Positions 7,159 to 57,804 are shown, counted from the first letter of the stretch. The stretch: 64,000 nucleotides of DNA from an uncultured bacterium (GCA_966252325.1 CBINON010000023.1:878-64877); one strand, 5' to 3'. The notes: a model not told the origin generated them from the sequence alone. A program made the numbers and translations.

Positions 7159-7199
7159 GCCGCTAGATCGGGACGGCAGGCAGCGTATTCTGCCCCGAC

Positions 7200-8648
<1,449 letters not shown>

Positions 8649-33604: not shown

Positions 33605-36181
33605 ATGAGCCCACCGGACAGCAGCGAACTGCAACTGCAGGACCGCATCGGCACCGGCAGTTGCGGCGAGGTCTTTCGCGCCACCGCCGAAGGACGCGCC
33701 TGCGCGGTCAAGCTTTTCTCGACGATGTCCGTGAACCGGCGCGGGCTGGAAAACACGCTGCGTCGCCTCGCCTCCCTGCCGCCGCACCCGGGGATCCTGC
33801 CGGTCGATCGCTTCGAGATCGGCAGCGGCCCGTGTCGCTTGGCCATGCCCTTGGTCGGCTTCCTGGAACGTGACCCTCAGGGGCGCCGGATCTGGCACAC
33901 GCCCACGCTCGAAGCGCTGTGCGAATCCGGGGTCGACCATGAGCGCGCCTGGAACCTCATTCACCAAATCGCTGAAGCGCTCGCCTGGTTGCACCGCCAC
34001 GGCCTCGTGCACGGCAACCTGCGGCCGGTCAACATCTTCATCGAAGCCGGGCCGCCGGAGACCGCGCGCCTGACCGACCTCGCGCAGGGCTGGGTCGGCG
34101 GCGTGCACCGGCTCGACCTGACCGACCACTTCCTCAACCTCGCCCCCGAACAGGCGGAGAATCCGGACGGCGTCTTCCAAGGCCACGGCGCCGGTGCGGA
34201 CGTGTACAGCTTCGGCGTGCTCGCCTACCGCCTGCTCACCGGCCGACGCCCGCGCGGTGCCGAGATGTGGGCGGCGCAGACCGCTTTCGTTGCCGAAAAA
34301 GCCGCCGCCGGCCTGGCCTACGGCATCGATCAGGCCGCCCTGCTGGCCGCCGTGCGCGCCCAACCCAAGATCGAGTGGCCGGAACCCGCGGCCGACAAAT
34401 GGGAGGAGCGCCGCCGCCACATCCTCGAACGCTGCCTCGACCTCAATCCCGCCGCCCGCTGGGCCGACATGCGCGAGGTGCTGCGCGAATTCGAGGTGCT
34501 GGAAGCGGATCGTCAGATCGAGGCAAGCCGCGACTGGGTCGATCTGGAACGTCGCGCCCAATCCAGGCGGGTCCTGAGCCTGCAGATCCTCGCCGCCTGC
34601 CTCGCCGGCCTGCTCGTGGCCGGGGGCGCCACCGCCTTCCTGCTGCTGCACCGCGCCCGTCAGGCAGAGCAGGCGGCGCAGACGGAGGCCGCCGGCCTGC
34701 GGGCCGATCTCAGCCGTGGCGAACAGTCGCAAAGCGAGCTGACCGCCGAACTCGAGCGCGCCCGGGCGGCCGTGCGCACGGCCGAAGTCCGCCGCGGGGA
34801 AGCTCAGGCCGCGGTCGATCAGTTTCTCACCCTGCTGCTGGAATTCCCCGCCGGCGACGAACTCGAGTCGGGACTCGTGCGCAGCCAGCTCGATGACGCG
34901 CTGAAGTTTTGTCTCGCCAGCCTGCCGGCGCTCGAGGCCGACCCAGCGCTCGGCTTTGAGCGACTGCGCGCCTATGCCAACCTTGGCCGCATTCACCTGC
35001 GTCTGCGGGAGCATGGACCGGCGCGCGAGTTCCTCGACAAGGCGCGCAGGCAGGGCGAGCGCCTGCTCAAGCAGCCGCCGGCAGGCCTGCCCCTCGGACG
35101 GATCCACACCTGGCAGGGACGTTCCTGCCTGCTGCTCGCCGACCTGCACGAACGCCGCGCCGAGCGGGCCACCGCGCTGGAGCGCCTGCGCGAAGCCGCG
35201 CACAGCCTGGGCGAAGGCTTGGCGGCGGATCCAACCCACCGATCGGCCCGTCAGGAAGCGGCCCGCGCCTGGCTGCAATTCGGCCAGCTCAGCCGTCAGC
35301 AGGGCAGCCTCGACGAGGCCCGCAAGGCCCTGGCCCGGGTGCGCGAGACCCTCGATGCCCAACACCTCGCCCCCGGCACCCTGCCCGAGGAAAACTTTCT
35401 GCTGGCGCGCGCCCGGTTTGCCGAGGGCCTCGTCCAGCGCGACGCCGGCCAGGCGCGCGAAGCCCTCGACACCCTGCTGGAGGCCGTCACCGAGATGGGC
35501 CGGCTCGTTGCAGGAAGCTCACCTCGCCATCAGGGCCAGGCCCTGCTGCTGGCCGAAGCCTACACCGAACTCGCCGAACTCATCGCCCGCCAAGTCGGCG
35601 CCCAGGAAGCCCGCGAGGCGCACGATCAGGCCGTGCCGGTCCTGCTTGAGCTCAACCGCCTGCACCCCGAGTGGGCCGATGTGAAGTACCTGCTCGCCCG
35701 CAACTACGGCGCCATCTCACTGCTTGAGCGCGACCTCGGCAACCGCGAGACCGCAGTCAAGAAAAAGCAGGACGCCATCGAACTGGTCAACGAAATCCTT
35801 GCCGACGAGACCGACAACCCCCGGTGGCGCGCCCTGCAGGCGTGCCTGCGCGGCGAGTACGCCGAACTCATGACCGATCTCGGCAAGCCGGACGCCGCCC
35901 TGCCCATCCTCAAACAGGCCATCGCCGCCGCCGTCGAACTGCTGGCCGGCGAAGACGGCACCCGCCTGACCCACGAACGCCGCGCCGCGGAAATCCAACT
36001 CGCCCAAATGTATGGCGTGCTCGGCCACACTCACCAGAACCTGAAGCAGACGACTGAGGCCAAAGCCGCCTTCACCACCGCGCTCGAACGCTGGCAGAAA
36101 CTCGCCGCCCTGGTCCCGGGCGACGAAACCCTTCAGCAGGGCCTCGCATGGACGCGCGAGCGACTCGCCAAACTGAAATGA
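33605..36181 (+). CDS. membrane Ser/Thr-kinase-like protein with TPR-rich C-terminal region; catalytic Asp replaced (predicted pseudokinase)
   Basis: Hanks-type motifs are present: GTGSCGEV (Gly loop), CAVKL (Lys) and LAPE (APE). The catalytic loop reads HGNLRPVN instead of HRDLKPxN (34010-34033), and DFG reads DLA (34076-34084). One TM helix (VLSLQILAACLAGLLVAGGATAFLLL) is followed by a coiled coil and ~450 aa of TPR-like helical repeats. Confidence 0.85.
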   Translation: MSPPDSSELQLQDRIGTGSCGEVFRATAEGRACAVKLFSTMSVNRRGLENTLRRLASLPPHPGILPVDRFEIGSGPCRLAMPLVGFLERDPQGRRIWHTPTLEALCESGVDHERAWNLIHQIAEALAWLHRHGLVHGNLRPVNIFIEAGPPETARLTDLAQGWVGGVHRLDLTDHFLNLAPEQAENPDGVFQGHGAGADVYSFGVLAYRLLTGRRPRGAEMWAAQTAFVAEKAAAGLAYGIDQAALLAAVRAQPKIEWPEPAADKWEERRRHILERCLDLNPAARWADMREVLREFEVLEADRQIEASRDWVDLERRAQSRRVLSLQILAACLAGLLVAGGATAFLLLHRARQAEQAAQTEAAGLRADLSRGEQSQSELTAELERARAAVRTAEVRRGEAQAAVDQFLTLLLEFPAGDELESGLVRSQLDDALKFCLASLPALEADPALGFERLRAYANLGRIHLRLREHGPAREFLDKARRQGERLLKQPPAGLPLGRIHTWQGRSCLLLADLHERRAERATALERLREAAHSLGEGLAADPTHRSARQEAARAWLQFGQLSRQQGSLDEARKALARVRETLDAQHLAPGTLPEENFLLARARFAEGLVQRDAGQAREALDTLLEAVTEMGRLVAGSSPRHQGQALLLAEAYTELAELIARQVGAQEAREAHDQAVPVLLELNRLHPEWADVKYLLARNYGAISLLERDLGNRETAVKKKQDAIELVNEILADETDNPRWRALQACLRGEYAELMTDLGKPDAALPILKQAIAAAVELLAGEDGTRLTHERRAAEIQLAQMYGVLGHTHQNLKQTTEAKAAFTTALERWQKLAALVPGDETLQQGLAWTRERLAKLK

Positions 36182-36184
36182 GTC

Positions 36185-38092
36185 TCATGGCCGCCAGACG
36201 GCCGTACCCATATGATAGCCGGGATGCTCCGGCGCACTCTTGCTGTAGTAAGCGGTGACGATCCGGCCATCGGCAAGCTGCACGCTCGACGGATAGCCGC
36301 AGTCGTTCGAATGGCTCACCGCCAAGCGGACATGCGCCCCCCAGGTCTGGCCTTCATCCGAACTGAACTTGGCGCAGACGCCGTGGCGACCGGCGATGCG
36401 CACACCGTAGGTCAGCAGCAGGCGACCATCTTTCAGGCGCAGCAGGTGGCCGTTGATCTCGTTGCGTTCCGTGGCCCGCACCGGTTTGGCCCAGGTGCGG
36501 CCGCCGTCGTCGCTGCGGAAAATGTCCATCGCCTCAACGCGCGCCGCCGCCAGCCAGTGCCCCTGCCCCAGCGGAAACAGCTGCGTTTCATTGTGACGAT
36601 CGCCAATGACCGCCACCGCCTGCCAGCTGCGGCCATCGTCGTCACTGCGGAAGTGCCAGGAGCGGAAACTCTGGATCTTCGACGACCGCATCGGATCCGC
36701 CAGCCGCCCCTGATAGCAGGAAACATGCAGGACGCCGGCGGCATCGGCCCAGACATCGCCAAACGGGATGTACTCGGTCCAGCCCGGCTCGGCGCGGGGA
36801 AAGTTCTCGTGCCGCGTCCAGGTGCGGCCGCCGTCGGCGGAGCGCAGGATCCAGTTGCCAAGGATGGCGTCGCGGAACGGCGCCTGCTTGGGCCGCTCCG
36901 CCTGCTTGCGATCCGTCCAGCCCGAGCAGAGCACGACCCAATCGCCATTGCCCGCCAGGCCGGCGGCGTGGTTCATGCGGATCGTGCCCGGCTCGTGGCG
37001 GGTGACCGTCGAGCGCTTCTCCCAGGTGATGCCATCGCGGCTCACCCAACAATCGATGTCGCCTTCCAGCGTGCCATGCCCGGGCTGGTTGTGCAGCACG
37101 GCGAAAATCTCGCCCTGCGGTGTCAGCGTCAGGTTGGGCCACGCGCAGACCTCCTTGACCGCGACGTGGCGGCTCAGCTCGCGCGGCCGCGGTTCGCGCG
37201 CCAGCGCCAGCCGCTCCTGGGTGCGCCGCCACTCGAGACCCGGATGTTCGGTGCGAAACCGCACCAGCCGTCCCTGCTCCATCTCAGTGACGTAAACGGT
37301 GCGACCGTCAGGCCCGCCAAAGCAGAGATTCGAGGGTTTGGCACCCAGCACCTCCACCTCGTGCAGCACCTCACCTTTGGCGCCGAGCACCACCACCGTA
37401 CCCTTGCCGTGGCGGGTGACATGCAGGCGCCCCTCGACATCGACCCGCATGCCGTCAAAGCCATGGTCCTCAAAGCGGGCGAACTCGCGTTTGCCGACCA
37501 GGTTGCCATCGGTCTCGACGCGGAAGGCCCAGATGACCCGCTGCACGCTCTCGTTGACATAGAGGGTGCGTCCATCCGGACTGAGGTCGATGCCGTTGGT
37601 GGTGCCCAACCCGTCGGCCGCCAGCGCGACACGCCCCGCGCGATCGATCCGCCAGAGGCGTCCGGTCCCCGCCTTCCAGTCCGGGTCGCTGGCGTAAATG
37701 GTGCCATCGGCCGCCAGCGCGAGATCGTTCGGCTGACTCATGCGCGCCTCGTGGGCAAAGACGCGAACGACCTTTGTCGCCGGATCCACCTGCAGGATGT
37801 TGTGGCCGGTGTAATCGGCGACGTACAGCAGGCCGTCGGGGCCGAACCGGCTGCCATTGGCCGTGCTGCCCTCCGGCAGCTTGACAAACAGCTCCGCCCG
37901 GCCCTCCGGCGTGACACGCCCGAGGGTGTGTTCGCCGCCGAACTTGACGCAGTAGACGTTGCCGTCGCCGTCCACCGCCGGCCCCTCGATGCCGGAGGTG
38001 AAGAGTCCGGGGGCGGTGAACGGCTCGGCCTGGAACAAGGTTTCCGCACTGGCGACGGCGGTGGCGAGCAAAAAAGGCAAGAGCAGGCGCAT
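36185..38092 (-). CDS. secreted fusion of an SMP-30/gluconolactonase/LRE-like beta-propeller and a BNR/Asp-box (sialidase-like) beta-propeller
   Basis: Signal peptide MRLLLPFLLATAVASA. The N-terminal ~300 aa carry SMP-30-like blocks (GPAVDGDGNVY, PNDLALAADGTIYASD, TNGIDLSPDGRTLYV, FDGMRVD, PSNLCFGG). The C-terminal ~330 aa carry five Asp-boxes (SRDGITW, SADGGRTW, SDDDGRSW, SDDGGRTW, SSDEGQTW). Confidence 0.85.
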   Translation of the reverse strand: MRLLLPFLLATAVASAETLFQAEPFTAPGLFTSGIEGPAVDGDGNVYCVKFGGEHTLGRVTPEGRAELFVKLPEGSTANGSRFGPDGLLYVADYTGHNILQVDPATKVVRVFAHEARMSQPNDLALAADGTIYASDPDWKAGTGRLWRIDRAGRVALAADGLGTTNGIDLSPDGRTLYVNESVQRVIWAFRVETDGNLVGKREFARFEDHGFDGMRVDVEGRLHVTRHGKGTVVVLGAKGEVLHEVEVLGAKPSNLCFGGPDGRTVYVTEMEQGRLVRFRTEHPGLEWRRTQERLALAREPRPRELSRHVAVKEVCAWPNLTLTPQGEIFAVLHNQPGHGTLEGDIDCWVSRDGITWEKRSTVTRHEPGTIRMNHAAGLAGNGDWVVLCSGWTDRKQAERPKQAPFRDAILGNWILRSADGGRTWTRHENFPRAEPGWTEYIPFGDVWADAAGVLHVSCYQGRLADPMRSSKIQSFRSWHFRSDDDGRSWQAVAVIGDRHNETQLFPLGQGHWLAAARVEAMDIFRSDDGGRTWAKPVRATERNEINGHLLRLKDGRLLLTYGVRIAGRHGVCAKFSSDEGQTWGAHVRLAVSHSNDCGYPSSVQLADGRIVTAYYSKSAPEHPGYHMGTAVWRP

Positions 38093-38217
38093 GGCCGAAC
38101 AATACGCGCCGGACTGCCCAAAACCTTCGCCTCGGACACAGGCGCAAGATCTGCACAGCGATTCCTCTTCCTCATGACCGCGAACTGGGGGATGCTGGGT
38201 TGAATTCTCAACGCTTC

Positions 38218-41200
38218 ATGAAAACGCCGCTCCTCTATCTTCTGCTTCTCGGAGCCGCGCCACTCAGCGCCCAATTCACCGGCAGCGACGACTTCGCCAG
38301 CGAGACCAAGAACGCCACCAAGTGGGGCGCGGACATCTCCGGCGGCTCCGGCCAACTGACCCAGGCGGGTGGCTTCGTGCGCTACACCAGCGCGGGCCTG
38401 ACGGACGACGACTTCATGGCCTGGCCCTGGATCGTCGGCACCGGGCCGCTCGATCAAAACTGGAGCATCCAGGCGGATGTGCATGTGCCCATCATTGCCC
38501 TGCCCGAAGGCTTCGCCGCCGCCGGCATCGGCATCGGCGTGCGCAACAGCAACAATCCCGACGACACCTTCACCCTCGCGCTCGAAAACGAACGATCGCC
38601 CGGCCAGGCCCAGCAGTTCAACTACTTCAATGGCATCGACATCGGCGGCGACGGCAACGAAACCAACCATCCCGCATCCGGTCAGGACGGCGCAGTGCGC
38701 ATCTCCTGGAATGCCGCCACCCGCACGCTGACCGCCGAATTCGACGCCGATGGCGCCGTCAACGGTTACCAATGGATCCCCTTCAACAGCTTCAACCCCT
38801 TTTCCGGCGGCTGGCTCATGGGGCCCGAAACCCAGCTGGAGATCTTCCTCCTGGGGGCCTCGGAAAACATTGCGGTCACCGAAGACGACAACGTCCACGC
38901 CGACAACTTTGCGGTGGCACTGACCACGCCAGCCAACCTGTTCGGCGCCGACAACTTCAACGACGACGCGCGCGATCCCACGAAGTGGGGGACGAACGAC
39001 GCGCAAAACACCGGCCTGTTGAACGAAGTCAGCGGCCGCCTCGAGTACACGGGACAGGCTGACATCGAACCCTTCGGCTACGCCGAACGGCCGTGGATCC
39101 TCAACACCGGCAGCTACACCGAGGATTGGGAGGCGCGCGTGGACGTGCATGTGGACGCCATCCCCATGGGCGTTGCGGGCGACCGCACCCAGATGGTGCT
39201 GGCGGTCTACGGCAACGACCACACCGGCGAAATCCAGCTTGAGCTTGAGCACGACGGTGCGAACCCACAGCGACGCTTCCGCTCCACCACGGACGGGGAC
39301 ATCGGCGAAACCACGGCCAACACCACCACGACCGACGGCGCCCTGCGCATCAGCTTCAACGCCGCGCAGAAGGTGCTGACCTTCGCCTATGATGCCAATG
39401 GACCGGTCGGCGGCTACTCCTGGACGACGCTGAAGACCCTCGACGTCGATGCGCCCGCCAGCGACTGGCTGATGGCTGAGACCTCGCGCTTCAGTCTGGC
39501 CATCTTTGGCGAGCATGAGGGTGTCACCGTGGAACCCGGCGAGGCCTGGGCCGACAACTTCGAGGCGACCAGCGCCCTGCCCTCCGTCGTTGCCGGCACG
39601 CCGACCGGCACGGAGAATTTTGCCGGCGCCGCCAAGGACGGCAGCAAGTGGGGCGCCAATCTCAAGTCCGGCGCCGGCCAACTCACCCAGACGGGCGGCG
39701 TGCTGCAGTACACCAGCACCGCCACCTCGGAGGATGACTTCATGGCCTGGCCCTGGCTGGTCAGTGCGCCGTTCGCGAGCGACTGGAGCGTGCAGACCGA
39801 TGTGCACCTGCCCTGGATCCCGCTGGCCGACGACTTCACCGCCGTCGGGGTCGGCCTCTTCGTCAGCCACAGCGCCGACATGGACGACAACTTCAGCGCC
39901 ATGCTGGAAAACTACCGCTACCCGGGTGCGCCGCAGAGCTTCCACTTCTTCAATGAGGAAAGCATCAACGACGAGGGCGATGAAACCTTTGTCGACGCCC
40001 CCTCCAGCCATGCCGCCGTGCGCGTCAGCTGGGATGCCGCCAGCCAGACCCTGTCGGCCGCCTACGATCCGGACGGCCGCCTCAACGGCTACACCTGGAC
40101 CGTGTTCCGCACCTTCAATCCGGTCACCCAGGGCTGGGGCATGACGGGCACCGGCAGCTTCAAGATCCATCTGGGCGCCTACTCCGAAACGACGGCGGTC
40201 ACCGCGGCGCACGGCGTGCATGCCGACAACTTCCGCACCTTTGGCCTGCCGGGCAACCCGATTGCCCCGGTGGTAAAAACCCTGGCCGCGACCGGCATTG
40301 GCTTCGACGGCGCCACCCTCAATGGCTCGGTCGACGCCAAGGGGTCGGAGCGCGACGTCTTCTTTGACTATGGCACAACAACCGCCTTCGGCATGAGCGT
40401 GCCAGCGCTGCCCGCCAGCGTCGACGGTGGCGGTGCACAGTCGGTCTCGGCCGTGATCGGCGGCCTGCTGCCGCACACGAAGTACTTCTTCCGCACCCGC
40501 GCCGAGGGCCTGCTGGGTACCGCCAGCGCCACCCCCCTGTCTTTCACCACGGCCAATCGCAACCCCACCGGCAGCAACGACAGTTTCACCGTGCTGCCCG
40601 GCAGTGTCGTCGTGCTCAACGTGCTCGACAACGATGTCGATCCCGACGGCGATCCCCTCGCCCTCACCTCCGTCACCGCCCCCGCGGCCGGCGCCAAGGT
40701 CAAGAAGACCGGCAACACGGTCCTGCTTACCACCGCGGCCGGCTTCAACGCCCCCAACGGCTTCACCTACAAACTCGCCGACGCCTTTGGCGGCAGCGCT
40801 CAGGCCAGCGTCGCCCTCGTGCCCGGCACGCTGGAACTGGATCTGGCGACCCAGGATGACCTCACCTCCGCGGGCGGCAGCTACGACGTCGTGGTGACCG
40901 CCAACGGCCTTTGGTCGGTGGCCGCACCCGCCTGGGTGCGCGCCGAACCGGCCGCCGGCAACGGCAGCACCACGGTAACGCTCTCGGTCCAGCCGAACAC
41001 CGGCACCAAGCCACGCACCGGCACCGTCTTCATTGGCGGCGTCGCCCACACGGTCACTCAAGCCGGGGTGCTTAAGCCAGCGCTTGCCATGCCCGCGGAT
41101 GTCCCGGGGGGCATCGTCAGCGGCAACTACGATCTGCTCATTCCGGTCGAGAATCTGCCGGTGGTGTTCTCCATCAAAAACCTGCCGCCCGGCCTGACCG

Positions 41201-42465
41201 CCAACGGTGCCACCGGCTCGATCACCGGCAAACCGCTCAAGGCAGGCGACTACAACGTCGAAATCCGCGCCAAAAACGCCGCCGGCAGCGCCGACGAGGT
41301 GCTCACCTTCGACATCTACGTCGCCGCGCTTGACGAAGGCCTGGTCGGCCTCTTCCACGGCTTGGTCGATCCGCATGCCGACCACAACGGCAAGCTCGGT
41401 TCGCGCCTCGAACTCACGGTGGCCAGCACGGGCGCTGTTTCAGGCAAGGCCGTCACTGGCACGGTCGCCAGCCCCTTCAAGGGCCAACTGGACGCCTCTG
41501 CCAACGACCCCGAACACCCCGTCTGCCGCCTGAGCGTGCCACGCAAGGGCCTGCCGCCCCTGCAGGTGGAAGTGCAGTTCGATGCCACTGAAGGCACCCT
41601 CGCCGGCAACGTCTACGAAGACGACCCCGGGGAGAACGCCGCCGTTGAGGCCTGGCGCAACCCTTGGAAAAAGCTCGGCCCGACACCGTCCGATGCCGGT
41701 TTCGCCGGCCCGCACAGCTTCCGCCTCATCCAGAACGATGCCGATCCCGGCCTGCCGCAGGGCGATGGCTTTGGCAGCTTCACGGTCTCGACCGCCAATG
41801 GCAGCCTCAGCCTCGCCGGCAAGACCGGGGACGGCGCGGCCTTTGTCGGCAAGACCTTCATCGGCCAGGAGGGCCAGGTGCTGCTGTATCAGGCACTCTA
41901 TGCCAAGCGCGGCTCGCTGGCCGGCGTGCTGCAGGTCAATGCCGGGGCCACCCCTGCCGACAACACCGTTGGCGGCGACGCCCGCTGGTTCAAGCCCGAT
42001 GGCGGCGAGGCCAGCAAGGACACCCTCTATCCGCGAGGCTTGGATCTGACCCTTGATGTCGACGGCGGCGGTTACCCGCTGCTTGAAAAGGGCGACCTCG
42101 TGATGGGCCTCACCCCAGGCAACAACAATGCGCTGCTTGAGTTCAGTGCCGGCGGCCTCGATGGCGACGGCTTCGACCAACTCTTCACCGTGGTCAATCC
42201 AAGTGCCACCGGGATCACCAACAAGGCCGTCATCGTCAAGGATGCCGGCGCCAATCCGAACCGGGTCAAGGTGGCGAAGTTCGACGCCAAAACCGGCGCC
42301 CTCGCCGGTGAATTCTGGATCGGCGCCCGCAAGGCCCCCTGGTTCGGCCAACTCGTCCAGAGTGGCGGCGAGGTCCGCGGCCACGGTTTCTTCGTGCTGC
42401 CGGAAACCGCCGGCAGCGGTGCCCAGCGTCTGTCCGGCCGACTGTTCCTGACGGCACCCGAGTGA
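38218..42465 (+). CDS. 1415-aa secreted multi-domain protein: 3 tandem ~205-aa unassigned (jelly-roll/lectin-like?) domains, FN3-like, cadherin-like, BACON-like and He_PIG-like Ig domains, and a ~380-aa unknown C-terminal region
   Basis: Signal peptide MKTPLLYLLLLGAAPLSAQ (ATG 38218; the track uses TTG 38200). Three internal repeats each start D(N)F...KWG and end (H/W)ADNF: 38287-38910, 38947-39561 and 39612-40233. They are followed by ATLNGSVDAKGSERDVFFDYGTTTAFG (FN3-like), VLDNDVDPDGDPL (cadherin/VCBS-like), GGSYDVVVTANGLWSVAAPAWV (BACON-like) and NLPPGLTANGATGSITGKP (He_PIG-like). Confidence 0.85.
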   Translation: MKTPLLYLLLLGAAPLSAQFTGSDDFASETKNATKWGADISGGSGQLTQAGGFVRYTSAGLTDDDFMAWPWIVGTGPLDQNWSIQADVHVPIIALPEGFAAAGIGIGVRNSNNPDDTFTLALENERSPGQAQQFNYFNGIDIGGDGNETNHPASGQDGAVRISWNAATRTLTAEFDADGAVNGYQWIPFNSFNPFSGGWLMGPETQLEIFLLGASENIAVTEDDNVHADNFAVALTTPANLFGADNFNDDARDPTKWGTNDAQNTGLLNEVSGRLEYTGQADIEPFGYAERPWILNTGSYTEDWEARVDVHVDAIPMGVAGDRTQMVLAVYGNDHTGEIQLELEHDGANPQRRFRSTTDGDIGETTANTTTTDGALRISFNAAQKVLTFAYDANGPVGGYSWTTLKTLDVDAPASDWLMAETSRFSLAIFGEHEGVTVEPGEAWADNFEATSALPSVVAGTPTGTENFAGAAKDGSKWGANLKSGAGQLTQTGGVLQYTSTATSEDDFMAWPWLVSAPFASDWSVQTDVHLPWIPLADDFTAVGVGLFVSHSADMDDNFSAMLENYRYPGAPQSFHFFNEESINDEGDETFVDAPSSHAAVRVSWDAASQTLSAAYDPDGRLNGYTWTVFRTFNPVTQGWGMTGTGSFKIHLGAYSETTAVTAAHGVHADNFRTFGLPGNPIAPVVKTLAATGIGFDGATLNGSVDAKGSERDVFFDYGTTTAFGMSVPALPASVDGGGAQSVSAVIGGLLPHTKYFFRTRAEGLLGTASATPLSFTTANRNPTGSNDSFTVLPGSVVVLNVLDNDVDPDGDPLALTSVTAPAAGAKVKKTGNTVLLTTAAGFNAPNGFTYKLADAFGGSAQASVALVPGTLELDLATQDDLTSAGGSYDVVVTANGLWSVAAPAWVRAEPAAGNGSTTVTLSVQPNTGTKPRTGTVFIGGVAHTVTQAGVLKPALAMPADVPGGIVSGNYDLLIPVENLPVVFSIKNLPPGLTANGATGSITGKPLKAGDYNVEIRAKNAAGSADEVLTFDIYVAALDEGLVGLFHGLVDPHADHNGKLGSRLELTVASTGAVSGKAVTGTVASPFKGQLDASANDPEHPVCRLSVPRKGLPPLQVEVQFDATEGTLAGNVYEDDPGENAAVEAWRNPWKKLGPTPSDAGFAGPHSFRLIQNDADPGLPQGDGFGSFTVSTANGSLSLAGKTGDGAAFVGKTFIGQEGQVLLYQALYAKRGSLAGVLQVNAGATPADNTVGGDARWFKPDGGEASKDTLYPRGLDLTLDVDGGGYPLLEKGDLVMGLTPGNNNALLEFSAGGLDGDGFDQLFTVVNPSATGITNKAVIVKDAGANPNRVKVAKFDAKTGALAGEFWIGARKAPWFGQLVQSGGEVRGHGFFVLPETAGSGAQRLSGRLFLTAPE

Positions 42466-42630
42466 TCCCCTGCCGGGGCGCGCGGTTCCGTCCGTAGCGC
42501 ACCGCCTCCTGCGGGCTCCGCCGACTCCCACCGGCGACCTTGCACGGAGCGGCCGCTGCGGGCGGGACCCCGCGCCCCGCAGGCCAGATTCCCGGTGAGA
42601 TCGCCGGCCGGCCGGCGTTTTCTCCGCACC

Positions 42631-43578
42631 ATGCGCCTGCTGCCCGTCCTGCTTCTGCTGCTCGCTGGCTGCGATCGGCCGCCGCCCAGGCCGGAGGCGC
42701 CGCGCGGCGTCATCGGGGTCTCGCTGCTCACCCTCGACAACCCCTTCTTCAAGGTGATCGGCGACAGCCTCAGCGCCGAGGCCGCCAGGCACGGCTTCGA
42801 CACCCTCGTGGTGAGCGGCGACAAGGACGTCGCCAAGCAGGGCAACCAGATCAAGGACTTCATCGTCCGCGATGTCGCCGCCATCGTGCTCAGCCCCTGC
42901 GATTCGAAATCGGTCGTGCCGGTGATCCGCGAAGCCAACGCCGCCGGCATCCCGGTGCTGACCGTCGACGTGCCCTGCCATGAGCCCGGCGTGACCCTGG
43001 TGACGCAGATCGCCACCGACAACCTCGGCGGCGGGCGCGAGGCCGGCCGGGCCATGATCGAAGCCCTCGGCGCCCGCGGCGGCAAGGTGGCGGTGCTGCA
43101 CCTCAAGCAGGTCGAATCCTGCCAGTTGCGCGTGCGCGGCTTCCGCGAAGTGATCGAGGCCCACAACGCCGCGGGCGGCCCGCGCATCGACATCGTCGCC
43201 GAACTCGAAAGCGGCGGCGCCAAAGACCTCGGCTACAAGGCGGCCGAGGACACCCTGCAGGCCCACCCCGACCTGCGCGGCCTCTTCGCCATCAACGATC
43301 CGGCGGCGCTCGGGGCGCGCGCCGCCCTGGAAAAGGCCGGCCGGGAAAAGCAGGTGGTGATCATCGGTTTCGACGGCCAACCCGAGGGCCGACAGGCCAT
43401 CCTCGACGGCCGTTTGTATGCCGATCCCGTGCAGTTTCCCGACAAGATGGGGGTGCAGGCCGTGCAGGCGATCCTGAACTGGTCGCGCGGCCTGCCCGTG
43501 CCGGAACAGATCCTGATTCCAACCGAGCTGTACCGACAGGCCGACGCCCGGCGCGACCCGACGCTGACCCCGCCATGA
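42631..43578 (+). CDS. sugar ABC transporter substrate-binding lipoprotein (RbsB-like, PBP type I)
   Basis: MRLLPVLLLLLAGC lipobox, then IGVSLLTLDNPFFKVIGD, DFIVRDVAAIVLSP and GLFAINDPAALGA blocks of ribose/galactose-type binding proteins. Confidence 0.85.
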   Translation: MRLLPVLLLLLAGCDRPPPRPEAPRGVIGVSLLTLDNPFFKVIGDSLSAEAARHGFDTLVVSGDKDVAKQGNQIKDFIVRDVAAIVLSPCDSKSVVPVIREANAAGIPVLTVDVPCHEPGVTLVTQIATDNLGGGREAGRAMIEALGARGGKVAVLHLKQVESCQLRVRGFREVIEAHNAAGGPRIDIVAELESGGAKDLGYKAAEDTLQAHPDLRGLFAINDPAALGARAALEKAGREKQVVIIGFDGQPEGRQAILDGRLYADPVQFPDKMGVQAVQAILNWSRGLPVPEQILIPTELYRQADARRDPTLTPP

Positions 43579-47196: not shown

Positions 47197-48993
<1,797 letters not shown>

Positions 48994-49012
48994 GCGGGCC
49001 GCCCTTGTGCGC

Positions 49013-50014
49013 ATGAAACCCCTGCTCTTCCTGCACATCGGCACCCACAAGACGGGGTCAACCGCGATCCAGCGCGCGCTGCCGGTCGGCGGCGCCGCCG
49101 CCCTCAAGGCCGGGCTGGTCCGCCTCGACATCCATGGCGACGTCGCCCGCGCCAGCTGGACCGAGGACGACGCCCGCGCCCTGCGCGCCAGCCTCGCCGG
49201 CCAGATCGTGCCGGGCGTGAGCCGCTACCTGCTCACCTGCGAGGGCTTCAGTGGCGACCCCCTGCGCGGCTACGCCAACGCCCCGGTCGCCGCCGCCCGC
49301 CTGCGCGCCGCCACCGCCGATTTCGACGTCCGTGTCGTCGTTTTCCTGCGCCGCCAGGACGATTTCCTGGAGTCGATCTACACCCAGCTCATCCACCAGG
49401 GCGGCTCGCAGTCCTTCGACGACTTCCTGCGCAGCCTGCCGCCCGGCGGTCCCGACTGGCAGCGCCTGCTCGACACCTACGCCACTGAGTTCGGCCGCGA
49501 AAACCTCGTCGTCCGCCGCTACCACTCCGCCTTTTACCCGCGCCCGGAAAGCCTGCTGGAAGATTTCTGCGCCATCCTGGGCATCCCGACCAGCGCCCTG
49601 GTCAAGGCCGATGCCACGCCCAACCAGGGCTACTCCCACGAGGCGCAGGAACTGGCCCGGGTCTGCAACCCGCATCTCGACGACGCCGGCCGCCGGCAAC
49701 TGCGCCAGCTCCTGCAAAAGATCAGCCCGAAGCCGGTCTTCCAGAGTTACGCCTACCTCGACCTGCCCGCCCGCCGCAGCCTGCTCACCGCCTGCGCCGA
49801 GTCCAATGCGGCGGTGGCCCGCGAGTTCTTCCAAGGCGAACCGCTCTTCCCTGAACCCGAGGATGCCGCCACCACCCGCGCGAACCGCGAACCCCTGGTC
49901 GCCACCCTGGTGAAAATGCTGCTCGAACGCCAGCGCGGCTCCCGCCTGGTGCGCCTCGCCGGCAAGATCGATCGCGCCCTCGGCGGCCTGAAGCGCTCCT
50001 CCCCCCAGCCATGA
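49013..50014 (+). CDS. P-loop sulfotransferase-like protein (hypothetical)
   Basis: MKPLLFLHIGTHKTGSTAIQ resembles the 5'-PSB (PAPS-binding) loop of sulfotransferase-fold proteins, and VVFLRRQDDFLESIY resembles a 3'-PB region. ATGA overlap with the next gene. The assignment is weak. Confidence 0.55.
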   Translation: MKPLLFLHIGTHKTGSTAIQRALPVGGAAALKAGLVRLDIHGDVARASWTEDDARALRASLAGQIVPGVSRYLLTCEGFSGDPLRGYANAPVAAARLRAATADFDVRVVVFLRRQDDFLESIYTQLIHQGGSQSFDDFLRSLPPGGPDWQRLLDTYATEFGRENLVVRRYHSAFYPRPESLLEDFCAILGIPTSALVKADATPNQGYSHEAQELARVCNPHLDDAGRRQLRQLLQKISPKPVFQSYAYLDLPARRSLLTACAESNAAVAREFFQGEPLFPEPEDAATTRANREPLVATLVKMLLERQRGSRLVRLAGKIDRALGGLKRSSPQP

Positions 50015-51795
50015 CCCCCGCCGCCGCGACCGCGCCCACCGCCGGATCGCCGCCGGCGCGCACGCTGCTGGTCCACGGCGCCTTCGCCACCCAGGCCGCC
50101 CGGCGCGCCATCCGGGACTGGAAGCGCACGGTCGCCCTGGAAGTGGATCTCGCCCTGCCCGAATCCCTGCGCCGCCAGTGCGCCGCCGTGCTCACCGTGC
50201 CGCCGCTGCTGCCGGAAGCCGAGGCCGAGCAACTGCAGGAACGCGCCGAGGCGGTGCTCGATGCCTTTCTCGAGGAACGCGTCCGCCTGCCCGGGCTCGC
50301 CACCGACCGACGTTTCCGTGCCGCCTGCATGAGCATCGAGGCCTGGCGCATCGTTGTGCCGCACGTGGTCTGCCTCGAGTACGCCCGCCGCGCGCTCGCT
50401 CACGGCCCCTTCGAGCGGATCGTCGTCGCCCCGGGCGCCGGCATCAGTCAGCCGGCCTTCGAACAGCTCGCCCGCGCCCTCGGCGTGCCGCTGGAGGTGC
50501 TGCCCTTCGATCGCGAGGAGCCGCCCGTTTTCTGGATGCTCAAGCGCCGCTGGCAGCGCTTTCGCCATCGCCGCCAGGCCGCCCGTCAAGCCGCCGCCCC
50601 CGCCCGCCTGCCGGCCTCCGCGGGCGCGGGCGAACGCTGGTGCGCCGACGCCCGCCTTGAAACCCTCGTTGCGAATGAGGACAAGGCCGGCCGCTGGCAC
50701 CGCGGCCCGGGGTTTCAGGACCCCGATCCGGCGGCGCTGTCCGCCCTCACCGACCGCTACCGCGCCTGGTGGCAGGCTTGGTGGCAGGACTGGCGCAACG
50801 CCCACCCGCAGGAGGAGCCGCTCAGCGATTTCTGGATTCTCGAACGCCTGGGCGACTGGTTCAGCCGCGAACGTTACCCCCTGCACGCCCAACTGCTCGA
50901 ACAGGCGCGCGCCGCTGTCGCCACCGCACCGCCGCAGCGTGTTCTCATCGGCTCGATGCGCGGCCGCCGGGAACTGCTCTGGGGCCTCGCCGCCCAGGAG
51001 CAGGGCATTCCGGCCGCGGTGTACACGATCGACTGCCACATCGATCCGCGCCTCGTCTTCAAGCCCGACCTCGCCCTCTGCGATGACACCCGCCAGTGCG
51101 AGATCGCCGCGGCCCGGCTGGCACCGCAACAGGTGGTGCGCGTGCGCTCGCACCGGCGTCCCCCCGGCCGCGACGTCGTCGGTCCGCCGCAACCGCATGC
51201 CCGGCCGCGCCTGCTGCTCGCCGACACCTACTACTCCGGCATGGTCGCCTCGAGTTCGCCCCTGCTGAGTTTCTGGGCCTACGAACGCCTGGTCGAGGCG
51301 GCACGGGCGCTGCCCGACTGCGATTTCATCCTCAAGTTTCACCCCGTGCGCGAGCGACCGGAGGCGGTCTTCCACCTCAGCGGCCTGCACCATCTCCACC
51401 TCTGGCAGCGCGAGCGCTTCATCCGCAGCCTGCGCCCGCCCCCGAACCTGCGCCTGCTCGCCCCCGAGGCGCGCCTCTCCGACGAACTGCCGCACGCCGA
51501 CCTGCTGCTCAACATCCAGTCCTACGCCGGGCTCGAGGCCTTCGCCCTCGACATCCCGGTCATCTACCTGCAGCCCTGGGACGAGGAAGGACTGTACCCG
51601 CGCATGAACGCCCTCGGCGCCATGCGGGTCGCCACCGACACGCCGCGCCTGCTGGCCCTGATTCGCGAACTGCTCGGCGACGACAGCCAACGCCGAACCC
51701 AGCTCGAGCGCCAGCACGCCTACCTCGACTATTTCTATTCCCAGGGGCATCCCGCCTGCGCCGACGCCGCCGCGGACGCACCCGGCGGCGCTTGA
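50011..51795 (+). CDS. uncharacterised 594-aa protein, paralogue A; C-terminal GT-B-like half with K-F-H-P motif
   Basis: Collinear with the 589-aa protein at 55928-57697 (shared blocks are listed in the findings). DFILKFHPVRE lies at 51325-51357. LLLNIQSYAGLEAFALDIPVIYL resembles the nucleotide-sugar-binding helix of GT-B glycosyltransferases. Confidence 0.7.
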   Translation: MTPAAATAPTAGSPPARTLLVHGAFATQAARRAIRDWKRTVALEVDLALPESLRRQCAAVLTVPPLLPEAEAEQLQERAEAVLDAFLEERVRLPGLATDRRFRAACMSIEAWRIVVPHVVCLEYARRALAHGPFERIVVAPGAGISQPAFEQLARALGVPLEVLPFDREEPPVFWMLKRRWQRFRHRRQAARQAAAPARLPASAGAGERWCADARLETLVANEDKAGRWHRGPGFQDPDPAALSALTDRYRAWWQAWWQDWRNAHPQEEPLSDFWILERLGDWFSRERYPLHAQLLEQARAAVATAPPQRVLIGSMRGRRELLWGLAAQEQGIPAAVYTIDCHIDPRLVFKPDLALCDDTRQCEIAAARLAPQQVVRVRSHRRPPGRDVVGPPQPHARPRLLLADTYYSGMVASSSPLLSFWAYERLVEAARALPDCDFILKFHPVRERPEAVFHLSGLHHLHLWQRERFIRSLRPPPNLRLLAPEARLSDELPHADLLLNIQSYAGLEAFALDIPVIYLQPWDEEGLYPRMNALGAMRVATDTPRLLALIRELLGDDSQRRTQLERQHAYLDYFYSQGHPACADAAADAPGGA

Positions 51796-54995: not shown

Positions 54996-55931
54996 TCAGA
55001 CCGGTTCCGCCAGCAGGCTGGCGATCTCCGCCAGCGCGGCACCCGCCGGCACGGCGGACGCCGAGGGCAGTCGTTCCGAAGAATAATCAAAGGCGCTCAG
55101 CGCCCGGTGGCGCGGCGTCGGCCAGTGCCACTTCGGCGGATACACCGGCCCAAAAATCGTCAGCGCCGAGACTCCAAACGCCTGGGCCAGATGAGCGGCC
55201 GAGCCGTCGACCGCGACCACCAGACGGGCGCGACTGAGCGCATGCAGGTACTGCGGCAGGCTGGTCCGCCCCGACAGATCGATCAGGCCCGCCGGCGCCA
55301 ACTTGGTGATCTCGGCGCAATGCTGGCGCTCTTCGGGCGAACCACCGCCAGTCATCACCCAAGGCAGGCCGTCACCGGCCGAAGCCATGACCTCGGCCCA
55401 GGCCTGCGAGGTCCAGTACTTGGAAGGCCAGGCCGCCGTCGGATTGGCCAGCAGGAAGGGCCCCTCCGGCAGTTCCGGATGGCGCCAGTCGGCAGGCGGC
55501 TGCGCCAGCCGCGGCGGGGTGAAGGCTTCCGGCTCGCCGCCGAGCGCGCGCCAGAAGTACTGCGCCCAGTACTCGCGGCCAATCGGCTCGATGCGCACCT
55601 CGCGAAACAGCAGGCGATACCACCAGCGCACATGCCGCGCTTGATTGACCAGCAGGCAGCGCCGGCGCGACGGCACCCGTCGCGCGCTCCAGACCGCGCG
55701 CGTGCTCCAGCTCGTCGTCCAGGAAAGCGCCGCCCGCTCGTGCTGATCCGGGCCCCACACCGCCTGCTCCATGAGGCTGACCAGCGGCCGGAAGGCCTGC
55801 TTGACATGCAGGGCGCAGGGTCGACCCGAGCGCGCGGCCAACAGGCGGGTCACCGGCTCCAGCAGCGTGACATCGCCCAGCTGTTTGTCGCTGATCAGCG
55901 CGCACGGGCCCTCCAGTCTGGCTGCGCTCAT
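54996..55931 (-). CDS. glycosyltransferase family 9 (heptosyltransferase-like)
   Basis: 311 aa. C-terminal blocks LIDLSGRTSLPQYLHALSRARLVVAVDGSAAHLAQAFGVSALTIFGP match the GT9 (RfaF/RfaC-type) nucleotide-sugar-binding half. ATGA overlap with paralogue B upstream. Confidence 0.8.
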   Translation of the reverse strand: MSAARLEGPCALISDKQLGDVTLLEPVTRLLAARSGRPCALHVKQAFRPLVSLMEQAVWGPDQHERAALSWTTSWSTRAVWSARRVPSRRRCLLVNQARHVRWWYRLLFREVRIEPIGREYWAQYFWRALGGEPEAFTPPRLAQPPADWRHPELPEGPFLLANPTAAWPSKYWTSQAWAEVMASAGDGLPWVMTGGGSPEERQHCAEITKLAPAGLIDLSGRTSLPQYLHALSRARLVVAVDGSAAHLAQAFGVSALTIFGPVYPPKWHWPTPRHRALSAFDYSSERLPSASAVPAGAALAEIASLLAEPV

Positions 55932-57697
55932 GCTGACACCTCCCGCCCGCGCGTCAGCAGGCGATTGACGGCTTCCGTCAGGGTCTGCCGCGAGCTCCAG
56001 AAAAACTCCTGCTGATAGCGGTGCTGCGCCGCCACCTGGGCCTGCCGATGGGTGCGATCGCCAAACAAGCGTGTCAGGGCCTGGGTCAGTTCCTCGCCGC
56101 TTTCGCCCCAGGGCGGCTGCAGGCGTTGCTCGAGTTCGGGAAACAGAAAGAACTCCGGCGGATGCCGAACCAGAAAGACCACGGGCAGCCCGAGGTGAAA
56201 GGCCTCATGACCGGACACCGAGATCGTGTTGAGCAGCACTGCCGCCGACTGCATCGCCTCCTCCATCGGCTGTTCGGGTGGTGCCAGACGGACGTTCGAC
56301 GGCGGATTCAGGGAGCGCAGGTAACGGGTCTTCGATTGCACCTCGCTCTCGTCCATGCCGATGAAGCCGCGCTCCTCGCTCTTGGACGCGCGCAGCGGAT
56401 GAAACTTGATGACGAAGTCGAGCTGCGGCAGCCGTCGCGCCGCCTCGACGACGCTGCGATACTGGTACAAACAAGCCTGCGGATCGGTAATGACCGTCAT
56501 CGTGTCGGCATGCAGCACCTGCGGCCGCCGGCGCGCGAACGCGGCCTCGACCTGCTCCGGTGTGCGCGGCGGCGCGCCCGGCCGGCGATGGCCCCGCACA
56601 TCGAGAATGCGCTCAGCCGGATAACCGGCGGCAATCATGCGCGGGATGCCGCGCTGACCATCCACCAGGGCAAAGTCCGGCACGAACATGGTGCGCGGCT
56701 TGAGCAGGAAGTCGTAGGTGTAGGAAGCCACCGGAATGCCCAGGCGCGCCGCGGCCAGCGACCAGATGCCCTCCTCGGCGCCGATCTGGGTGTCGGCCAG
56801 CAGCAAGGCCGGCCGGAGTTCGCGCAGACGCGTCATGGCTTTTTCGACCAGGGCCGACCAGCGTGGGTACAGCCGCGGCACGTGATGCTCGCCCATCGCC
56901 CGATGCAGGTCGCGACAGCCAACCAGGGCGGGATCCGCGTCGAGCACCTCGGCCTGCCAGCGTCGCCACCAGTCGGCCCAGTGCGCGGTCTCCGCCGCCA
57001 GCGCCCCGGCCTCGGGTTCGCCCAGTTCGGCGGCCGTCACGGTCTGCAGACGGAAGCACGGGGCGGTCGGTTCGCGGGCCAGCAGGCGAGCGACGCGGCC
57101 GCTGGCGCAGAGCACCAGAGGCGCCTCGTCCGGGGCTGCCGGACGCGCGACCGTTTCAGCGGTCGCCGCCGCCGGCGCGCGCCGCCAGCGGCAGAGCCAG
57201 CGCTGCAGTCGGCGACGCAGGCTGCGCGGCCGCCACTCCGGTGCCAGACACTCGATGGCCAGTCCCTTTTCCGCCGCCACCTCGCGCCAGAAACCGAAGC
57301 TGACCCCGCTGCCGGCACAAACCACGAGGCGATCGAACTCGAAGCGGCTCCAGAGGTGGTCGCGCAGGGCCAGATTGAACAGCCGCATCGACATCCGGTC
57401 CTGGAACTCGCCGCCGAGCGCCGCCTTGCGCAGGTCGGCATCGCCGGGCCGGTCGCCGAGTTCCGGCCGCGGCCGCAGGTAGGGATCCATGGCCTCGGTC
57501 ATGCCTGCCAGCAGGGGCATGGCGGCGTCACGCCCGAAAATGTCGCGGGTGCTCAGCCAGGCGGCGACGCCCGGATACCGCCCGCGATCCAGCAGGGTGT
57601 CATATTCCAGCACCACCGCGCCCTCGGCGACCTCGGCCAGCCGTCGCTCCAGCGCCTGGGGCGCGAGGGAACCGGTGAGAACAAGCGTGCGGGGCAT
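55928..57697 (-). CDS. uncharacterised 589-aa protein, paralogue B of 50011-51795
   Basis: Collinear similarity to paralogue A along the full length. DFVIKFHPLRA has its KFHP codons at 56396-56407. VLLNTISVSGHEAFHLGLPVVFL is a GT-B-like helix. Confidence 0.7.
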   Translation of the reverse strand: MPRTLVLTGSLAPQALERRLAEVAEGAVVLEYDTLLDRGRYPGVAAWLSTRDIFGRDAAMPLLAGMTEAMDPYLRPRPELGDRPGDADLRKAALGGEFQDRMSMRLFNLALRDHLWSRFEFDRLVVCAGSGVSFGFWREVAAEKGLAIECLAPEWRPRSLRRRLQRWLCRWRRAPAAATAETVARPAAPDEAPLVLCASGRVARLLAREPTAPCFRLQTVTAAELGEPEAGALAAETAHWADWWRRWQAEVLDADPALVGCRDLHRAMGEHHVPRLYPRWSALVEKAMTRLRELRPALLLADTQIGAEEGIWSLAAARLGIPVASYTYDFLLKPRTMFVPDFALVDGQRGIPRMIAAGYPAERILDVRGHRRPGAPPRTPEQVEAAFARRRPQVLHADTMTVITDPQACLYQYRSVVEAARRLPQLDFVIKFHPLRASKSEERGFIGMDESEVQSKTRYLRSLNPPSNVRLAPPEQPMEEAMQSAAVLLNTISVSGHEAFHLGLPVVFLVRHPPEFFLFPELEQRLQPPWGESGEELTQALTRLFGDRTHRQAQVAAQHRYQQEFFWSSRQTLTEAVNRLLTRGREVSA

Positions 57698-57766
57698 GGG
57701 AGAGAGTTGGACAGCATGCTGAAAACCACCGGGCTCGCAACCCTGGGATGGGTGATCCGCCGACGG

Positions 57767-57795
57767 TTGACAGGCCGGGCGCGCATGGGTTATTG
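57767..57795 (+). promoter_or_regulatory. candidate promoter for the neuB-neuC-acetyltransferase operon
   Basis: Perfect TTGACA (57767-57772), a 17-nt spacer, then a weak -10 TTATTG (57790-57795). The ATG at 57805 would give an almost leaderless mRNA. Sequence match only. Confidence 0.25.
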
Positions 57796-57804
57796 CCGGG
57801 TTTC

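Follow-up and report, generated by a model that had tools for sequence, protein, structure and literature searches.

A familiar protein plan puts a lectin head in front of an immunoglobulin (Ig)-like stalk and an anchoring region at the C-terminus; it is found in the long modular surface proteins SraP, Aap and YwfG, Gram-positive adhesins whose N-terminal heads are L-type lectins (PF00139/PF18483). Verrucomicrobia such as Prosthecobacter have an outer membrane, and to our knowledge the way in which these bacteria move very large modular proteins across that membrane, or fix them to it, is poorly understood. Among other bacteria, the type XI secretion system (T11SS) has been described for Proteobacteria and the type IX system (T9SS) mainly from Bacteroidota. 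The cargo of both is exported by Sec to the periplasm, is encoded by dispersed genes, and carries at its extreme C-terminus a conserved folded domain, the T9SS C-terminal domain (CTD) or the T11SS cargo barrel (TbpBBD type), which stands behind unrelated N-terminal effectors. In the T11SS cargo this domain is a soluble eight-stranded barrel that directs outer-membrane translocation (PMC12282271). The DNA analysed here, 64,000 nucleotides from an uncultured bacterium (GCA_966252325.1 CBINON010000023.1:878-64877; referred to as the window), includes at positions 38218-42465 of the + strand a gene for a predicted secreted protein of 1415 amino acids with three tandem repeats (R1, R2 and R3), a series of downstream modules and a C-terminal domain of 381 amino acids, named here the tail.

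The reading that we favour, and to which we give about an even chance, is that this protein consists of a Sec-exported, glycan-binding head of lectin fold, an Ig-like stalk, and a tail cassette for retention or targeting that is shared with many other proteins. New in it are the lectin-fold sequence family and the recognition of the tail as a very large and mostly terminal family for which there is no Pfam-A or NCBIfam model. Unlike the heads of the Gram-positive adhesins, this one comprises three copies in tandem and belongs to a diderm verrucomicrobium, and the protein has no LPXTG anchor.

Three tandem repeats with a predicted lectin fold

The open reading frame (ORF) is free of stop codons, and its G+C content at the third and second codon positions (0.84 and 0.50, respectively) is typical of the genuine genes of the window, which has 69% G+C. 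Full-length orthologs have 44-85% identity, are equal in length and begin at the identical MKT... sequence, for which reason the ATG at 38218 is the likely start and is preferred over the TTG at 38200. The codon-position composition together with the conservation among orthologs indicates that the gene is genuine and under purifying selection. An earlier reading of the DNA (the original prediction) had proposed a secreted protein of this length, which agrees with the clean translation and with the presence of a Sec signal peptide; the sequence of the latter does not include a lipobox cysteine.

The three repeats, of about 215 amino acids each, are similar to one another far above chance. BLASTP comparisons showed 47% identity between R1 and R3 (E=1e-70), 33% between R1 and R2 (E=5e-27), and 31% between R2 and R3 (E=1e-23), so the tandem copies that had been read by eye are confirmed, as is the closer relationship of the first and third copies. 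The motifs that had been listed for them were found in large part: KWG, DDFMAWPW or YAERPW, DVH, YD.DG..GY.W and ADNF are all present, while the proposed common opening and central block do not extend to every copy, since R3 opens with ENF and R2 has RISF. The start that had been given for the third copy, 39612, is one base out of frame, and the in-frame codon begins at 39613. All 18 orthologs possess three copies in the same order and with the same divergent middle copy, and therefore the triplication is older than the ortholog group.

A model of the repeat was generated with AlphaFold2 from an 18-sequence alignment (predicted local distance difference test score, pLDDT, 95.3; predicted template modelling score, pTM, 0.92) and includes 15 strands. 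A Foldseek comparison with the PDB gave 133 matches at E<=1e-3, and the best 50 of these 133, all with probability 1.0, have the concanavalin-A-like lectin/glucanase fold, with template modelling (TM) scores of 0.44-0.59 and identities of 9-17%. They include legume lectins, the bean alpha-amylase inhibitor and the lectin heads of SraP, Aap and YwfG, and also the phage Dit CBM2, PL7 alginate lyases, Rv0315-type glucanases and the C-terminal domains of GH43 proteins. The repeat is thus modelled as a concanavalin-A-like beta-sandwich that is closest to the L-type lectins, in line with the lectin or LamG-like sandwich that had been suggested for it at the level of fold. To SraP, Aap, YwfG and other L-type lectins the probability is 1.0 and the TM score 0.45-0.57 among the matches listed. 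On the other hand, the repeats share only 10-16% identity with these lectins, and the L-type lectin model PF18483 scored 17.6 bits against the 1415-aa protein (E=0.0036), below its cut-off of 78.3; none of 18 members of the repeat family matched it at E<=1.

No Pfam or NCBIfam family matched the repeats when the whole protein was scanned, nor did any Pfam family match when the scan was extended to 18 repeat copies. Repeat profiles compared with the PDB sequences did not reveal a lectin, only chance matches at E~0.3-1; matches of the repeat and tail profiles to TBP, a monobody and ribosomal protein S21 were discarded as being at this chance level. Placement in a described family such as DUF1080 or LamG, which had been named as part of the outcome that would make the architecture ordinary, was not observed. 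DUF1080 (PF06439) gave no Pfam match and an hhalign probability of 0.1% against the protein encoded at L001:14258-14899, and Laminin_G_3 (PF13385) gave no Pfam match and a probability of 0.2% against the corresponding region of P0020, both being weak tests with a single-sequence template. The repeat can therefore be considered a new sequence family within a well-known fold; the original prediction had likewise left the repeats outside the named families. The residues that are invariant in this family are mainly Trp, Phe and Gly, plus D67-V68, R141 and D156. The conserved D.DG..GY.W loop is only suggestive of a metal or sugar ligand site, and the His of the DVH motif is not constant, as DVS, DVT and DVN are found in relatives.

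A genome scan with the full-length ortholog alignment as query located full-length orthologs solely in Prosthecobacter, Brevifollis and metagenome-assembled genomes (MAGs) of Verrucomicrobiaceae, and single-domain forms of the repeat in Chthoniobacteraceae and another Verrucomicrobiota MAG. A word-index homolog search, which was limited in sensitivity (as became evident from the exhaustive search described below) and added 8 proteins for the repeat profile and 6 for the tail profile, identified proteins of about 270 amino acids (P0049-P0054) that consist of a signal peptide and one repeat domain, 33-38% identical to each of the three copies. Immediately after the DNF strand these proteins have a VPEP sequence, a hydrophobic stretch and a basic tail, recognised in one of them as Pfam PF07589, and they can be considered classic PEP-CTERM proteins of the kind sorted as exosortase cargo. 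The RPWILNTGSY motif of R2 is the one that is common to these stand-alone relatives. Two further arrangements were found, two repeat copies in P0021 and a single copy with a dockerin-like tail in P0029. Since the same domain occurs with PEP-CTERM in single-domain proteins, the head is displayed on alternative C-terminal ends, of which one is, as judged by sequence, a recognised sorting signal; the PEP-CTERM forms also place the head module among the proteins that these bacteria display or secrete. The 1415-aa protein differs from PEP-CTERM cargo in that it does not have PEP-CTERM and ends in a folded domain. One of the relatives, P0052 (191 amino acids, 44% identity to the repeat domain over 58% of its length), comes from a eukaryotic proteome set (eukprot) and is likely to be bacterial contamination.

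A large and mostly terminal tail family

The C-terminal region had been regarded as an orphan, and this is not the case. Residues ~880-1410 align with the C-termini of P0020, P0024, P0026 and P0028, proteins that have quite different fronts. An exhaustive HMMER search of 1.84 billion representatives (50% identity clusters), with a tail profile built from a 13-sequence alignment, gave 7,338 clusters at E<=1e-3, 5,584 at E<=1e-10 and 1,497 at E<=1e-30, with proteins of up to 6,550 amino acids. The tail had no Pfam or NCBIfam match, either in a scan of the whole protein or in 13 tail copies, and the literature searched did not include a description of a verrucomicrobial C-terminal domain of this kind.

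Local examination of 175 tail-bearing proteins, 157 of them non-orthologs, showed that the domain nearly always closes the protein and in most cases follows He_PIG: it ends 10 residues or less from the C-terminus in 173 of the 175, and a He_PIG-like domain is present in 142 of the 157 non-orthologs, in 140 of which it ends within 15 amino acids of the tail start (median gap, 1 amino acid). BACON, Big_9 and FN3-like modules are found as well in about a third of the 157, and the repeat domain is found in none of them (0/157). The heads carried by the family include NHL and delta-60 (DUF5122) propellers, I-set Ig domains, Calx-beta and cadherin-like arrays; the annotation of one sibling is that of an autotransporter-associated beta-strand protein. 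A Sec signal peptide is present in most of the full-length members, and a lipobox-like motif was found in 3 of 147.

The positions conserved in the family are mainly Gly and aromatic residues, within the motifs WRN.W, PQG.GYGSFTV, GKLADG, W.KP, TG.FSG.FTL and G.G.FLLP, which in the 1415-aa protein appear as WRNPW, LPQGDGFGSFTV, DG, WFKP, TGALAGEFWI and GHGFFVLP, followed by the terminal RLSGRLFLTAPE. The extreme end, which corresponds to window positions 42424-42462, has the consensus (T/S)SPK.SG(R/K)V.L plus 2-6 residues in P0057-P0203; 92 of 147 members finish with Pro, and the 1415-aa protein with Glu. A conserved terminal residue is unusual in a folded domain and could reflect recognition by a sorting machine or protection from carboxypeptidases. 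The chain ends ...LSGRLFLTAPE, without a hydrophobic tail, and the Pfam and NCBIfam scans gave no match to PEP-CTERM (PF07589), T9SS (at E<=1), LPXTG or autotransporter families; the original prediction was therefore correct in finding no PEP-CTERM, T9SS or LPXTG-type sorting tail.

The AlphaFold2 model of the tail (pLDDT 83.9, pTM 0.84) is all-beta, and its 27 strands form three blocks, which span tail residues 10-113, 130-251 and 270-378, i.e., about amino acids 1044-1147, 1164-1285 and 1304-1412 of the protein. When the whole model was compared with the PDB by Foldseek the top match was TbpB, and the quinohemoprotein amine dehydrogenase alpha subunit, BFA1, MoaF, DUF3598, a lipocalin-like protein and nitrobindin were also found; these matches have low TM scores (~0.2) but are all of a similar kind. 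Single barrels of about 100-110 amino acids in a viral model library match one third of the model well, the best of these sub-domain matches having probability 1.0, a TM score of 0.65 per target and a root mean square deviation of 3.1 A over 109 columns; other sub-domain matches were to a MoaF-like protein (TM 0.48) and a lipocalin-like protein (probability 0.94). The tandem-barrel proteins BFA1, DUF3598 and EF0376 also match the tail model. The tail apparently consists of three small, soluble, up-and-down lipocalin/MoaF-like barrels that in the model are packed as one rigid unit. It differs from the lipocalin, MoaF-like and nitrobindin barrels in that it has no sequence similarity to them and fuses three barrels in a fixed array. 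Comparison of the three thirds by hhalign did not detect significant similarity among them (the best result was a 23-column TG.(S/A)G segment with a probability of 15%), and therefore the barrels, if they are duplicates, are too old for their relationship to be detected.

The genes around orthologs and around tail-bearing paralogs are unrelated housekeeping genes, and no conserved operon partner was found, the neighbours being different in every locus read. P0020 and P0028 come from one assembly, which shows that genomes hold several tail-bearing paralogs. Scattered genes without a fixed neighbour are the dispersed pattern of cargo families that are served by one sorting system.

Between the repeats and the tail, the Pfam matches to the Big_9/cadherin-like, BACON and He_PIG domains exceed the respective cut-offs (PF17963, 57.5 bits with a cut-off of 23.6; PF13004, 30.8 with 25; PF05345, 26.5 with 24), in agreement with the modules that had been recognised by eye. 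The FN3-like module, also anticipated, is weak here and better seen in the orthologs P0010 and P0011, which carry PF00041/PF16656 matches for this region; a local hidden Markov model of the stretch matches 52 of the 157 other tail-bearing proteins.

Proposed roles of head, stalk and tail

The proposed mechanism is that Sec would export the 1415-aa protein of a Prosthecobacter/Brevifollis-like verrucomicrobium, and that its three lectin-fold modules would make up a multivalent head for a glycan or similar polymer, to which the divergent R2 may add a second specificity. The FN3-like, Big_9/cadherin-like, BACON and He_PIG modules would act as a stalk that keeps the head off the tail, and He_PIG and the triple barrel would form a fixed cassette that directs proteins to the cell envelope or keeps them there, replacing the PEP-CTERM tail of the single-domain head relatives. 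For the mode of surface retention, which the original prediction had left open, this cassette is thus a candidate. We infer carbohydrate binding, a surface location and a retention or targeting role of the tail from several lines of evidence. As judged from the model, the repeats most likely bind carbohydrate or a similar polymer, a role favoured over catalysis because the sequence does not include a GH16 or PL7 catalytic motif. The tail is taken as an envelope module because of its terminal position, its fixed partner domain, the heterogeneity of the heads and the conservation of the extreme C-terminus, and also because the genes are dispersed, with several paralogs per genome, and the relatives of the head bear PEP-CTERM instead.

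Several observations weigh against this reading. Foldseek TM scores for the whole tail are only ~0.2, the description as three barrels rests on the strand pattern and on sub-domain matches rather than on inspected coordinates, and partner machinery was not found near family members in the loci read. Five proteins (P0057, P0058, P0059, P0061 and P0064) have two or three full tail copies about 380 amino acids apart, either as genuine multi-copy proteins or as fused calls of tandem genes, and in P0057 one copy is located directly after the signal peptide. There are also minimal proteins composed of a signal peptide, He_PIG and the tail, e.g., P0111 (509 amino acids), and thus the cassette can occur without a passenger; P0094 and P0108 are likewise minimal members, with a signal peptide, He_PIG or a short N-terminal region, and the tail. 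Multi-copy and minimal proteins are no less compatible with a binding domain that does the work than with a mere sorting tag. They favour the main rival explanation, that the tail is the working end of the protein, whose three lipocalin-like barrels would serve to bind a ligand, either small and hydrophobic or of another kind (a lipid, haem, a cofactor or an envelope component), with accessory N-terminal parts and with the protein possibly soluble in the periplasm or the medium. The sub-domain matches to lipocalin-like, MoaF-like, nitrobindin and TbpB-type barrels, and the multiple copies of P0057 and P0058 with one directly following the signal peptide, speak for such a role. We consider it unlikely, given that the conserved positions of the tail are nearly all Gly or aromatic, with few polar ones to mark a ligand site, that an ordinary binding module would not be expected to stand at the end of 173 of 175 proteins or to have a conserved extreme C-terminus, and that the heads (lectin fold, propellers) are themselves plausible working modules.

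The two other alternatives are less likely. Concanavalin-A-like folds include lyases and glucanases, so the repeats could be enzymes of this superfamily (PL7-, GH16- or DUF1080-like) that act on polysaccharide, rather than lectins; the PL7 alginate lyases 5zu5, 8wok and 4ozx, the Rv0315-type beta-glucanases 5dxd and 4xdq and the GH43 C-terminal domains are among the matches listed, with TM scores of 0.49-0.59, as high as those of the lectins, and carbohydrate-active genes (AXE1, SGL/BNR_2, GH3 and a sugar ATP-binding cassette (ABC) system) are located nearby. These neighbours are not kept among the orthologs, however, and neither the ExDxxE motif of GH16 nor the RxELR, QIH or YFKAG motifs of PL7 can be read in the sequence. 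The variation of the DVH histidine in relatives and the resemblance of tandem divergent copies and single-domain PEP-CTERM forms to binding modules also argue against catalysis, as does the lack of a detectable sequence relation to the DUF1080 protein or the Laminin_G_3 domain in the weak hhalign tests, and we regard an enzymatic head as improbable. An even smaller probability attaches to the tail being a membrane-embedded outer-membrane beta-barrel that exports the remainder of the protein as an autotransporter does. Such an arrangement would suit a C-terminal, all-beta domain of 27 predicted strands that is found on large passenger-like proteins, some of whose siblings are annotated as autotransporter-associated beta-strand proteins. 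Against it, Pfam gave no match to the autotransporter domain PF03797 and the tail matches listed are small soluble barrels and propellers, with no outer-membrane barrel among them. The chain ends in Pro or a polar residue and not in the aromatic residue typical of outer-membrane barrel signals, and internal and N-terminal copies of the domain exist.

A more far-reaching form of the favoured head, stalk and tail reading, for which the argument is by analogy and which we hold to be doubtful, is that the He_PIG and triple-barrel cassette with its ...SPK.SG(R/K)V.L...P end serves an envelope sorting pathway, so far undescribed, as its cargo tag or anchor. Large modular proteins would be translocated or attached by this pathway in their thousands, in functional analogy with the T9SS CTD or the T11SS cargo barrel; the 1415-aa protein would be one of its cargos, with a new lectin-fold family as head. 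It is placed in Verrucomicrobiota solely because the named orthologs are verrucomicrobial. A precedent is T11SS, whose cargo likewise uses a soluble beta-barrel of small size, preceded by a conserved pedestal (PMC12282271), and TbpB is the top PDB match of the tail, at a TM score of ~0.2. The tail has no sequence match to either the T9SS or the T11SS family, it is about four times larger than the T9SS CTD, and it has three barrels versus one in the T11SS cargo, its members being mostly not lipoproteins. DUF560, the T11SS partner, was not found in the window or in the loci read. We do not claim membership of T11SS for the tail, and the resemblance serves as a precedent.

In a family of more than 7,000 clusters, a terminal position, a fixed partner and a conserved end are what one usually sees in a module shared for sorting or anchoring. 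If the tail is such a module, the machinery should be findable by phylogenetic profiling, and the displayed proteome of these bacteria would become predictable from sequence. Should the tail be just another binding module, what remains is a modular adhesin of the ordinary kind, two of whose domains merit family models of their own. The occurrence of repeat variants on two different anchors makes experiments on binding and localisation straightforward.

The locus and its neighbours

The features of the gene and of its upstream side are listed in Table 1. The intergenic region that separates it from the divergent SGL/BNR_2 gene presumably holds the promoter. An ORF on the opposite strand of the latter (36212-38203, +, 663 amino acids) was considered as a partner and rejected: it is Arg/Ala-rich, has no Pfam match and is a shadow ORF, the minus-strand gene being the genuine one.

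Table 1. Coordinates of the 1415-aa protein gene, its predicted modules and the adjacent upstream features. Positions are those of the window.
Feature	Amino acids	Nucleotides	Strand	Basis or remark
Sec-type signal peptide, MKTPLLYLLLLGAAPLSA, cleaved before QF		38218..38274	+	Sequence; N-terminus common to orthologs
R1	21-235	38278..38922	+	DDFMAWPW subtype; predicted concanavalin-A-like lectin fold
R2	239-452	38932..39573	+	Divergent copy
R3	461-676	39598..40245	+	47% identical to R1
FN3-like module	~680-778	40255..40551	+	Pur_ac_phosph_N, E=0.023, below cut-off
Big_9/cadherin-like Ig domain containing VLDNDVDPDGDPL	780-867	40555..40818	+	PF17963, E=2.7e-15; PF17892 (Cadherin_5), E=2e-9
BACON domain	881-949 (Pfam match 903-949)	40858..41064	+	PF13004, E=2.8e-7; PF19190, E=3.7e-5
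He_PIG Ig-like domain	~955-1034 (Pfam match 988-1033)	41080..41319	+	PF05345, E=8.8e-6; abuts the tail
C-terminal tail domain, all-beta in the model	1035-1415 (381 aa)	41320..42462	+	Profile search; AlphaFold2 model
Divergent intergenic region between the 1415-aa protein gene and the SGL/BNR_2 gene		38093..38217	.	
SGL (gluconolactonase-like) and BNR_2 (sialidase-like) gene	635 aa	36185-38092	-	Divergent from the 1415-aa protein gene

The sugar ABC system is located downstream of the gene. A GC-rich, terminator-like hairpin followed by a T run is found at 42602-42617, 137 nt past the stop codon, and lies a few nucleotides into the next ORF when this is read at its longest (42595-43578); the ORF encodes a sugar-binding periplasmic protein; the true start of this gene is therefore probably further downstream. 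Two genes upstream of the 1415-aa protein gene, at 33605-36181 (+), there is an 858-aa Ser/Thr protein kinase with a long tetratricopeptide repeat region. Kinases were also observed near two other tail-bearing genes (loci L017 and L018), which may be chance, since genomes of the Planctomycetes-Verrucomicrobia-Chlamydiae group are rich in kinases.

No other gene of the window contains the repeat or tail domain, and secretion or sortase genes were not found in it. The segment 51823-58845 includes a hexapeptide acyltransferase, a GFO_IDH_MocA oxidoreductase and a NeuB plus SAF synthase, and looks like a biosynthesis cluster for a nonulosonic acid (sialic or legionaminic acid type) of a cell-surface glycan. 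Three ORFs at 48932-51792 and 55931-57802 (360, 646 and 624 amino acids from stop to stop) have coding-like third-position G+C and no Pfam match at E<=1e-6. A DUF1501 protein is encoded at 7167-8645 (E=7e-138); DUF1501 proteins are characteristic of Planctomycetes and Verrucomicrobia, in keeping with the placement obtained from the orthologs.

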